From Podarcis liolepis (Eukaryota), in assembly GCA_965112155.1 (NCBI GenBank), contig OZ218107.1: 64,000 nucleotides of DNA; one strand, given 5' to 3'. Below, in pieces: positions 26,870-46,856 of this stretch. Both the position numbers and the translations under genes were made by a program. Each line of letters begins with the position of its first letter. Position 1 is the stretch's first letter. The notes under the pieces were generated by a model. That model was not told where the DNA came from and made no database searches. It saw only the letters and a list, made by a program, of their open reading frames with translations.

Positions 26870-27090
26870 TATCCGCCAATCACCCATTCCCACCACCCTT
26901 CTGAGTAATACCCCTCCCCACCTTCTCACTATATAGAAGGATCTGGCAACTTCTGTTTCAGTGTATCTGAAGAAGTGTGCATGCACACGAAAGCTCATAC
27001 CAAGAACTAACTTAGTTGGTCTTTAAGGTGCTACTGGAAGGAATTTTTTTATTTTGACTATGGCAGACCAACACGGCTACCTATCTGTAA
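26870..27090 (+). mobile_element. Penelope-like element terminal repeat fragment
   Basis: Recognisable string tctgaagaagtgtgcatgcacacgaaagctcatacc...gtctttaaggtgctactgga...gaccaacacggctac. CCAAT (26876) and TATATA (26930) lie upstream of a hammerhead core. Confidence 0.8.
26963..27000 (+). ncRNA. Minimal type I hammerhead ribozyme motif (Penelope type)
   Basis: GUAU-CUGAAGA-A-GUGUGC-AU-GCACAC-GAAA-GC-UC-AUAC. Stem I GUAU/AUAC, core CUGANGA, 6-bp stem II, GAAA, palindromic AGCU in place of stem III, UH site. Confidence 0.75.
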
Positions 27091-27292
27091 TTAGAATTTA
27101 CTGAATTTCGAATTATTACCAATAACACCTTGTTTTGACTAGACCACTTTGGGGGTGATATAATGTTCTTGCTCACGTACAGAGTCTTCCTGTTAACTGG
27201 AAGTTCAATAGCCTTAGGTCTCTTTATCATGAAATGATTTAGCCCACATATTGTATTTGAAGGCAAAGTAATAGATTAAACAGGTAATAGAA

Positions 27293-27417
27293 CAGGGGTG
27301 GGGAACCTGTTTGCCCATCAGATGATGATGCACTACAGCTTCCATCCTCTCCAAGCAGCATGTCACTCATCTGTGAGTCCCAACAGCATCTGAAGGGCCA
27401 CAAGTTTCCCATCCCTG
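27293..27417. mobile_element. Decayed hAT MITE
   Basis: caggggtggggaacct ... agtttcccatccctg. No clear TSD. Confidence 0.7.
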
Positions 27418-27726
27418 GCGCAAAATAAGACATTAAATTGGGCATTTTGGTTGAAAAAAACCCTAAAAAGATGAGGGAACTTGCTTTAATGCTTACAGAT
27501 GCTCTTAAAAGAATGAAGCAACTCTATTCACAACAATAGAAAAATATCAAGCAATAAGAATACAAAGCTATTAAACTGAATTAAATAAAAAACAACCATG
27601 CATACATAGTGCAAAACCAGCAACAACTGAAACAAAATTCAAAATAATTTTGACTCAAACATCTTCCCAGAGAGACAGGACTGAACCTGACATATAAATA
27701 TCCAAAGCATTGGATCCTGGATACTA

Positions 27727-27962
27727 CAGTGGTGCCTCGCAAGACGAAAAGAATTCGTTCCGCAAGTCTTTTCATCTTGCGAAGCACGGTCCGTCGCAAC
27801 TGCGCCTCTTCAAGCGGCTTTAAAAAAAAAGCGCAATACATTTTCGTCTTGCGAAGCAAGCCCATAGGGAAATTCGCCTAGCGAAGCAATGCAAAACCGA
27901 AAAACCCTTTCATCTAGCGAGTTTTTCGTCTTGCGAGGCATTCGTCTTGCGGGGCACCACTG
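27727..27962. mobile_element. Tigger-like MITE, family A (shorter variant)
   Basis: TA|cagtggtgcctcgcaagacgaa ... ttcgtcttgcggggcaccactg|TA. Shares both ends with 15410-15737. Confidence 0.92.
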
Positions 27963-30639
27963 TATAAGAAAGGCATTCCATAAAAGTATACTTTGTGTAG
28001 CAAAAATAATCAAACTAACATTAATAGTCCAGCTTTTGTTGTATTGCTGATATTAAAATATATAATGGGAGTATGTCAGAAATAAATTGAAACAATCAAG
28101 TTTAATCTTGGGATAGTATACTTTTGTAAAAATGGAAGGTCTAACAAGAATTATAGGCCATTTGAGAAAGAGTTTTCTAATGCTCTCAGCCATTATTTCA
28201 ATCTGTATATGTTGAATCAAATCTCTGCAATACTGCAATATTTTGTTTATTTAAAATAGTCATACTTTGTTTCTTAGCTATAGTTACTGAGGCAGTTCAC
28301 AGCATGAATTAAAATAATATCAACAGGAAAATGCAATGATCAAAAAACCTAAAAATCAACGTTAAAAAATATAATACAGCAGTTGAATCCAATTTAAAAC
28401 AGCCACAGATCAGAGAATTAAACCCCATCAAAAGCCTGAGACAATAGCAACATTAATATGCATGAAAGATGATATTTAAATACTTCAAGGGAATTTCATA
28501 GATGAGATGTTGCAAACGAGTAGTCCCTATCTCTGTATTGTTTGTTTGTTTGTTTGTTTAAAATATTTATATGCTGTCCACCTGCCAGACTTGCCCTGTG
28601 GCAGATGGAGAAGATAAGGATCTCACCCTGATCTGAAACATACCAGAGCAGTTCACAGTACACAGCACAATTCAAATTCATATATTAAAACCACAATAAA
28701 TTTCCAACAACTGAAGCCAAAATAATTCAACCTGAGCTGGGAATTAACAACCAACAAATACCTGGCTAAGCAACTGGACTTCTAAGCAGGTGCTGAAAAC
28801 TCAACAGAATTGGCACCTGCCTTATTTTAAGTTGTTGTTATTTAGTAACTATTATTATAGTTACTTTATCTTGCCCAGGGCAACAGAAAGCAACTTGCAA
28901 CAAACAGGTTGCCACCTGCCTCACTTTAGGAGATGGAGCACTCTGAGCAGGGCCTCTGATGATGCTCTTAATAGGCATGTTTGCGTGGGAGCAGGCAGAC
29001 TATCAAGTATCCCACCATTCTTAATCTGTTAATAGTAAACTCTAGGGACAAGAGCCTATGCCACACTAGCAGATATTGTAGAACTTTCCCTTACCATTTT
29101 TGCCTGAAGCACTGGCACTCCCAAATCTGCTCCAAAGGCCTCCCTATCCCTCTAGAACAAGTTTTGTGGGTGTGCTGGAGAGGGAGAGGAAATACCATTT
29201 GTACAAGTGGAAGCCCAACACACAAGCAGGTTAGCACACTAGATGTTACCATAGGAGTCCTAAAACATTCAGCAATTTTCTCATTATAAACAGGGCCTCC
29301 CCCAAATTTTAGTGAAAACAAATTAAAAATTGTCTTTTTCTCCCCACTCCTCCTCTCCCTAAAATTGCTTTTGCCTCATTGGGAAAACCCACATCATACT
29401 CAGTACAGCACAGTAGTAGACCCTTAGTCAAAAGCTTCACCATAAGAATTCCCAAAGTAGAAGCAACCTACAGTTTTCAGTGTGCTAAACTTCTTACAAA
29501 ATGCAAATCTGTGTAGTTTACTGGACCCAGGAGCATGTTTCTGTAGTTCAAGTAGTGATGATAGCCTTGAGTATATTTTAATACAGTTCTTTGAGCATGC
29601 AATTCTTTTGATGACTAGCACAGTCAACAAGCAGGGGCTAGAGGAAGTACATTCTCTGGTTACCAAACAGTTGTGCTAAATAGTGGGATTGTGATAAACA
29701 GCTTCTGTTCTTTAATTGATGGCTGCTTGTTTGAAACCTGCTCTGCTCTGTTGCTATTTGTGGGTTGCATGTAAGTGTCAGTGGTGTCCCTCTTCTGGAA
29801 GGCTCTGCTGTGTGCCTCAGGCCATATCTCTTCCATTCCTGAAAGTTTTCAATTTTAAGTGGCCCATTGCTTGTTAACTTTAAATTACCGTTGCTTAAAT
29901 TGGAAGGATTGGAGATCCTAAATCTTGACTCTCATGACAAAAACAAAACCATGACAACTGCTCCCTTTGCAGCCAGGAAGGCTGCTCTCATACTCAGAGC
30001 TAAAAAAATTATTATGCTAAATAAGATGCAAAATAATGTGGCACTACACTCTTTAGCCAGATTGATAAGTGATGTGCAGGAATATGATGGATGAACAAGT
30101 AAACAAGTCTGAATTCCACTAAATTCAGTTTTGGATAACCTAATATATGCTTCAAGTACAGAGCATACACTAAAGCCAAGGTCTGAGGTGGCCAGCCATC
30201 AGCCAATTTTTGCACTTTCAAATATAAGCATTATATTCAATTAAAATGTTGCCTGCCTCTTCAGCAGCATGTTTTGCATTCTGTCACAATGCTGTTATGA
30301 CACTATAGACATTTAGGATCTTCTTATTATAGCTATTTTAGTTCCTGCTAAGTTTTTTCTGGACTTCTCCCAAGTTTCAACTCTTCACTCTAAGCTTGCC
30401 TTTGTAAATTGATGTCATTGTGAGGTGCCTCAAAATATTCGACATGCTTGTGCTCTATTCACATTCTCCTGGGAGTATTCAAGGGAACTGATGAAGTAGC
30501 CTATAAAAGCTAAACTTTCCGTTTATTCATTTTCACAAGACTCTTACCATTTCCCTTTCAAAACTAAGTGAATATGGGCAGAATTTGCCATTCCCAATCC
30601 ATAATGCTTTAATAATAAGAAACAAACAAATAAGTATAA

Positions 30640-46766: not shown

Positions 46767-46856
46767 GCTTTGCAGGCAGCCAGACAGCTGCTTTTACAGC
46801 AACAGACAACTGGGCTGAAATCTCCCAAGAGCAGTGATAAACAGAGACCATTGCAG
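46767..46856 (+). CDS. FOXP2: FOXP2 internal coding exon (orthologue of human exon 3, about residues 57-86), phase 0/0
   Basis: Acceptor ...tatttacttgcag| and donor |gttagt bound exactly 90 nt. Translation [30 protein letters not shown] matches the recalled human FOXP2 segment at 29/30 residues and differs from the equivalent FOXP1/FOXP4 segments. Confidence 0.97.

Follow-up and report, generated by a model that had tools for sequence, protein, structure and literature searches.

A minimal hammerhead motif in a FOXP2 intron of Podarcis liolepis is a lone, probably silent stub of a young Penelope-like element

Background

Does a hammerhead ribozyme motif that lies in sense within a FOXP2 intron cut the pre-mRNA that carries it, or did it arrive there as part of a mobile element and fall silent? 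The initial annotation of the window (the whole stretch of 64,000 nucleotides analysed here) had described at 26963-27000 an intact minimal hammerhead core of the kind carried by Penelope-like elements (PLEs), and had proposed that it could cut the FOXP2 intron by pairing with a second copy in trans, while allowing for the inactivity of a copy on its own. Our literature search found no paper by title on a FOXP2 intronic ribozyme or on this FOXP2 copy. In this work we examine the motif itself, the repeat family to which it belongs, its insertion in the host gene and the predicted folding of the RNAs that would contain it. The results make it highly probable that the hammerhead belongs to a young PLE of high copy number, likely of the Neptune clade, and that what is left of it in the FOXP2 intron is a solitary stub of 226 bases, likely without catalytic activity there.

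Results

A genuine minimal type I hammerhead

The window letters at 26963-27000, read directly on the + strand as GUAU CUGAAGA A GUGUGC AU GCACAC GAAA GC UC AUAC, agree with the motif and core as first described and constitute a genuine minimal type I hammerhead (Table 1). They hold the core of PLE minimal hammerheads (min-HHR), CUGANGA ... GAAA-N2-UH closed by stems I and II, together with the extra base between positions 9 and 10.1 (A26974), the G10.1-C11.1 pair (G26975-C26988) and a palindromic remnant of stem III (AGCU). A structure descriptor matched once in the window and on average 0.005 times in 200 dinucleotide shuffles, one of which had a match; a looser, stem-free pattern was less telling, with one match in the window, 0.09 expected and matches in 9 of 100 shuffles. 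The perfect pairing originally reported for stem II stands, the segment at 26975-26988 being a perfect 14-nt palindrome common to the PLE family present here, but its size has to be revised, since it folds into 5 bp and a 4-nt CAUG loop and not into 6 bp and a 2-nt loop. The Rfam search suggested as a check returned no hammerhead at gathering score across the 64 kb, and its six matches at E <= 10 in 25000-29000 included no hammerhead and none overlapping the motif. The folding energy of the 38-mer is unremarkable against its own shuffles (z -0.44, with 61 of 200 equally good).

Judged by its sequence, the motif shows every testable feature of PLE min-HHRs. According to the available text of Cervera and de la Pena 2014 (PMC4209133), it shares with the min-HHRs of metazoan PLEs a 4-bp stem I, the unpaired base between 9 and 10.1, the G10.1-C11.1 pair, a palindromic 15.2-16.2, location in a pseudo-LTR (pLTR) and dispersal as thousands of single copies (Xenopus tropicalis has about 9,000, and turtle and snakes are represented too), whereas stem II, with 5 bp and a 14-nt palindrome here, has 7-8 bp in the metazoan set.

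Table 1. Coordinates in the window of the hammerhead, the element stub that contains it and the neighbouring host exon
Feature	Position	Strand	Basis or remark
5'-truncated, tailed PLE stub (partial pseudo-LTR + tail), ~226 bases	26865..27090	+	copy identity; empty-site joint 26864->27091
TATA-like box of pLTR (inferred promoter)	26930..26935	+	30-31 nt before pile-up of copy 5' ends
Inr-like site, inferred element transcription start ~26960-61	26957..26963	+	34/91 copies begin 26955-26966
Predicted hairpin masking CUGAA of core in read-through RNA	26957..26971	+	folding
Minimal type I hammerhead, AGCU palindrome replacing stem III	26963..27000	+	letters, fold, descriptor
Stem I, 4 bp	26963-66 / 26997-27000	+	
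CUGAAGA core	26967-73	+	
Extra A	26974	+	
Stem II	26975-88	+	5 bp + CAUG loop
GAAA	26989-92	+	
AGCU palindrome (stem III remnant)	26992-95	+	
Predicted cut	26996/26997, after C26996	+	
Optional PLE 'tail', first codons of element ORF (ATG at 27060)	27056..27090	+	bimodal 3' ends; full-length ORFs share ATG
FOXP2 coding exon 3' of stub-bearing intron	46767..46856	+	translation

A uniform, high-copy repeat family

The 1.57-Gb genome holds 9,879 exact copies of the 38-mer (4,999 forward and 4,880 reverse; control 0), so the motif is not specific to FOXP2, and the 28-mer just 3' of it occurs 18,411 times. Such uniformity is matched only by D. virilis in the available text of PMC4209133. By chance, about 0.2 sense copies are expected per 64 kb intron. 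Among the best 40 of 502 candidates are the window's own copy and others that match it at 97-100% identity over ~225 nt, with homology starting at 26867; the copy alignment took in 12 rows, and the window copy is 100% identical to one of the repeat copies (L010) over 224 nt. All eight related runs examined carry the family at high depth.

A pattern excluding the main stem II gave 119 genomic matches, and among the 100 listed most were point variants of the window's family. Nineteen hand-picked divergent motifs were mostly decayed, with a stem I of at least 4 bp in five, a stem II of at least 4 bp in four and both in one; two of them (L236, L237) show a two-sided change in stem I. Being decayed copies, they lend weak support to conservation of the structure. 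Loci L226-L244 represent older, decayed, low-copy hammerhead families that differ in their stems and have U at core position 7.

Identity as a Penelope-like element

Sister copies of the stub run upstream into a GIY-YIG domain (PF01541, E 1.4e-5), and in one locus (L111) RVT_1 (E 2.9e-12) and GIY-YIG (E 3e-5) sit together in a single open frame of 748 codons, which is the layout of EN+ PLEs, with reverse transcriptase (RT) and, at the C terminus, a GIY-YIG endonuclease (EN) in one ORF. Other EN+ PLE traits are present as well, namely partial tandems forming pLTRs, inverted 5'-truncated partners and an optional 30-40 bp tail. Two direct pLTRs were found in all six long loci, which had been chosen from 30 for having an upstream pLTR; they lie ~3.0 kb apart in five and ~4.0 kb apart in one, and three of the six carry open frames of 921-926 codons running on from the equivalent of the ATG at 27060. 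Many copies have an inverted 5' partner. The 3' ends are bimodal, with 27 of 62 alignments (one locus counted twice) ending at 27050-62, 30 at 27088-101 and five elsewhere, in agreement with the optional tail that the available text of PMC11167929 ties to two RT start sites. The window stub corresponds to the element's 3' pseudo-LTR end; longer copies of this element encode RT and the GIY-YIG endonuclease and occur as tandems. The stub holds the first ORF codons without the ORF body, and the six-frame ORFs listed include no element ORF near the motif. The original view of a Penelope-type minimal hammerhead that would need a dimer is borne out.

A C-x4-CxxC linker precedes the endonuclease in the translated copy, and the Neptune features, a CX2-5CxxC zinc-finger linker between RT and EN and a CCHH motif in EN, are present when read by eye. 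As given in the available text of PMC8557442, this linker marks Neptune and Nematis, is reduced in Nematis and is absent from Penelope and Poseidon. On these motifs, rather than on a tree, the element would likely belong to the Neptune clade. It resembles PAc, a Poseidon element of Anolis carolinensis (Frangieh et al. 2024, PMC11167929), in that both are lizard PLEs with a pLTR hammerhead and tandem layout, and PAc as described in the available text also has the optional tail of 30-40 bp, two RT start sites, AT-rich targets and a mainly uncut RNA template. PAc, like other Penelope and Poseidon elements, lacks the CX2-5CxxC linker, however, and its ORF starts at stem II, whereas that of the window's family starts ~63 nt past the cut site. 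Animal non-LTR retrozymes likewise have a type I hammerhead related to PLE pLTRs, but in the available text of bioRxiv 10.64898/2026.07.22.740005 they are tandem non-coding units, whereas the window has a single stub and other copies are contiguous with an autonomous PLE ORF. A non-LTR retrozyme, with its tandem hammerhead units, does not fit the single copy found in 264 kb (the window plus 100 kb on either side).

Two unusual arrangements were observed among the copies. At L113:181-2448 (G000:C9:3250972-3253239; also L118) a 5'-truncated PLE is in frame with a LINE-like ORF2 APE domain, giving a fusion frame of 756 codons with APE, partial RT and GIY-YIG; seen once, it is probably a chance in-frame insertion or a template switch. 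Two loci on C20 (G000:C20:29197311-29200868 and C20:27914142-27917699; L139-L142) are 100% identical over 3.2 kb and both hold an inverted pair of PLE bodies; we read them as either a recently duplicated segment or a duplicate in the assembly.

A recent insertion in the FOXP2 intron

FOXP coiled-coil matches lie 46-63 kb beyond the window end on the + strand of C11, at one of three such loci, which from its protein motifs we take to be FOXP2 rather than FOXP1/4. The first FOXP2 coding exon is ~17.3 kb 5' of the window (about G000:C11:53178709, +), and later exons, including the forkhead motif, follow downstream, all on +. Because the exons on either side are all on +, the motif is in sense within the intron after the first coding FOXP2 exon, as the initial annotation had placed it; this intron measures ~64 kb, with ~44 kb between the upstream exon and the motif and ~20 kb between the motif and the downstream exon. 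The FOXP2 polyglutamine exon is a run of ~40 Q (G000:C11, about 53295560-53295780; L080).

Presence of the insertion was compared in eight of the 21 related runs listed, all of them assembled contigs; X1, X8, X10, X11, X12, X14, X21 and six guessed-RNA rows with small shares were left out. The listing named no RNA run as a holder of the sequence, which carries no information about expression. Single contigs bridge the empty site in six of the eight, X2 and X3 (organism A), X5 (C), X6 (D), X9 (F) and X13 (G), joining 26864 to 27091 with 123-128 other letters between. The contigs of X7 (E) depart from the window at both junctions, which fits an empty site, without a bridging contig. X4 (B) reads 32 letters beyond 26864 into the element and has no empty joint, so that it likely carries the insertion; its contigs do not span the 3' junction. 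With empty sites in most runs, the insertion is lineage-restricted or polymorphic and took host DNA away, and the presence/absence comparison originally called for shows it to be missing from most related animals sampled. The insertion is recent and the element family young.

To produce such a stub, the element endonuclease would have nicked AT-rich intron DNA, reverse transcription would have begun at the more distal of its two internal start sites, hence the tail, and would have stopped ~225 nt further on, and repair of the 5' junction, next to a short stretch (CAGCTAT) in which host and element are similar, would have cost 123-128 host bases. No target-site duplication was found by eye at the stub junctions.

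Several features of the flanks were recorded. At 26850-26873, about seven letters of host flank resemble the element 5' end and X4 carries a further 10-letter duplication, likely a microhomology or slippage scar of the 5' junction. X4 agrees with the window at flank positions 26779, 26782 and 27172, where the majority of the other runs do not, and the haplotype that carries the insertion thus seems to be shared with organism B. A short element with inverted ends (27723-27963) adjoins the stub, and a high-depth repeat piece lies beside it near 27380-27417, within about 27290-27420.

Copy 5' ends point to a probably uncut template

The 5' ends were mapped, with an accuracy of a few bases, for 91 copies, the first C1 places listed for the 28-mer, among which inverted partners are not independent. 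They fall upstream of 26940 in 28 copies, at 26940-54 in four, at 26955-66 in 34, at 26967-92 in 19, at 26993-27000 in three and beyond in three, with none at the cut-site position 26997. The pile-up at 26955-66 is strong (34 of the 63 in range, p 5e-11), whereas evidence for a deficit at the cut site is weak (p 0.056). Between the TATATA at 26930 and the peak, which falls on the Inr-like site, there are 30-31 nt, and a TATA box with Inr is described for pLTRs in the available text of PMC3846280. Since 5' ends pile up after the TATA and none falls at 26997, uncut transcripts from the pLTR promoter are likely the usual template; stalling of RT at the ribozyme stem is an alternative source of the pile-up.

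A core predicted to be masked, and no partner within 264 kb

With only 2 nt between A15.1 and U16.1, stem III requires pairing of AGCU with a second copy, and neither BLAST nor the descriptor found one in cis in the 264 kb. A single Schistosoma mansoni min-HHR is described as giving no cleavage, and dimers as cleaving at a low level, in the available text of PMC4209133. That of PMC11167929 describes the anole PLE hammerhead as cleaved only with the element protein, cleavage as unneeded for insertion and RNA-seq ends at the hammerhead site as not seen.

Nearest-neighbour folding, whose values leave out core tertiary energy, kinetics and proteins, predicts a stem I probability of at most 0.06 in every folded context with upstream bases. 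In such contexts the first five core bases have a predicted unpaired probability of at most 0.13, mostly through a hairpin between 26957-61 and 26967-71; four of its five pairs reach a probability of ~0.95 in four of five upstream contexts, and in the fifth context the core pairs elsewhere. When the RNA begins at 26960, folding leaves the core mostly free, and stem I has a probability of 0.86, 0.17, 0.66 or 0.04 depending on the 3' end chosen. With no partner nearby and the core predicted to be masked in the pre-mRNA, transcription and splicing of the intron likely proceed without a cut. Cleavage of FOXP2 pre-mRNA by the stub therefore appears unlikely on these predictions, and the original reservation about the activity of a lone copy is upheld.

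Discussion

The motif is real, belongs to a known kind, reached its location by chance and is likely silent there. The proposal that it plausibly cuts the FOXP2 intron is not supported: the motif is one of 9,879 exact copies, with ~0.2 expected by chance in such an intron, it is missing from most related runs and has no partner in 264 kb, and in the folding predictions its core is masked and a dimer in trans is unfavourable. A rival form of the proposal is that element transcripts from the pLTR promoter cut FOXP2 pre-mRNA in trans at AGCUC/AUAC, perhaps aided by protein, and so slightly reduce FOXP2 output. The core is predicted to be mostly unpaired in RNA starting at 26960, thousands of loci could supply a partner, and the anole element cleaves with protein help (PMC11167929, available text); with the core bases intact and the family apparently active until recently, element protein and transcripts could be there to aid cleavage. 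Yet a one-core dimer is predicted at -13.0 kcal/mol and the active two-core dimer at -11.1, against -14.6 for two monomers, and stem II, being a palindrome, can pair with that of another copy into a 14-bp intermolecular duplex of -28.0 kcal/mol that is predicted to be favoured over the active dimer and is probably inactive. Copy 5' ends are absent from 26997 and rare around it (3 of 91), and activity is low even for dimers in the available text of PMC4209133, so that we consider such cutting very improbable. Slightly less probable again is a general version in which the pLTR acts as a switch, the core being free in promoter-born RNA and masked in read-through RNA, so that element transcripts would cut, in trans, the sense copies of thousands of host introns, FOXP2 included. 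A conserved masking-hairpin switch was rejected for want of consistent support in the 19 divergent motifs (mean core unpaired probability 0.12-0.71).

Between these two in likelihood, and also very improbable, is an effect on FOXP2 by another route, through the 123-128 intron bases lost or through a cryptic sense promoter with TATA and Inr: host bases were indeed replaced and the stub keeps both the TATA box and the inferred start site, but only ~95 nt of stub precede that start. Domestication as an intronic ribozyme akin to the RECK or C10orf118 hammerheads is hardly credible. Those ultraconserved amniote hammerheads (RECK/HH9, C10orf118/HH10) are also type I, intronic and in sense, and the core is intact here; they are, however, conserved, single-copy and active as monomers, whereas the window motif lacks stem III and belongs to a recently inserted copy of a repeat. 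The RECK hammerhead is active in cells according to the available text of PMC10761166. The orthologous site is empty in six of eight runs, which largely refutes domestication and by which a conserved HH9/HH10 hammerhead was rejected, and the stub is identical to L010 over 224 nt and has no Rfam HH9/HH10 match.

For FOXP2, a silent PLE stub has small meaning, a chance copy being present in about one of five introns of this size, and the presence/absence site is usable as a population marker. Should the switch prove true, the FOXP2 presence/absence allele would be a natural test of knock-down by a retroelement ribozyme. As a young and uniform PLE of Neptune type, the family is modestly useful to specialists, and the suggestion from its copy ends, that uncut RNA begun at the pLTR promoter serves as template, fits what was found in vitro for the anole element and bears on the question of what PLE hammerheads do.
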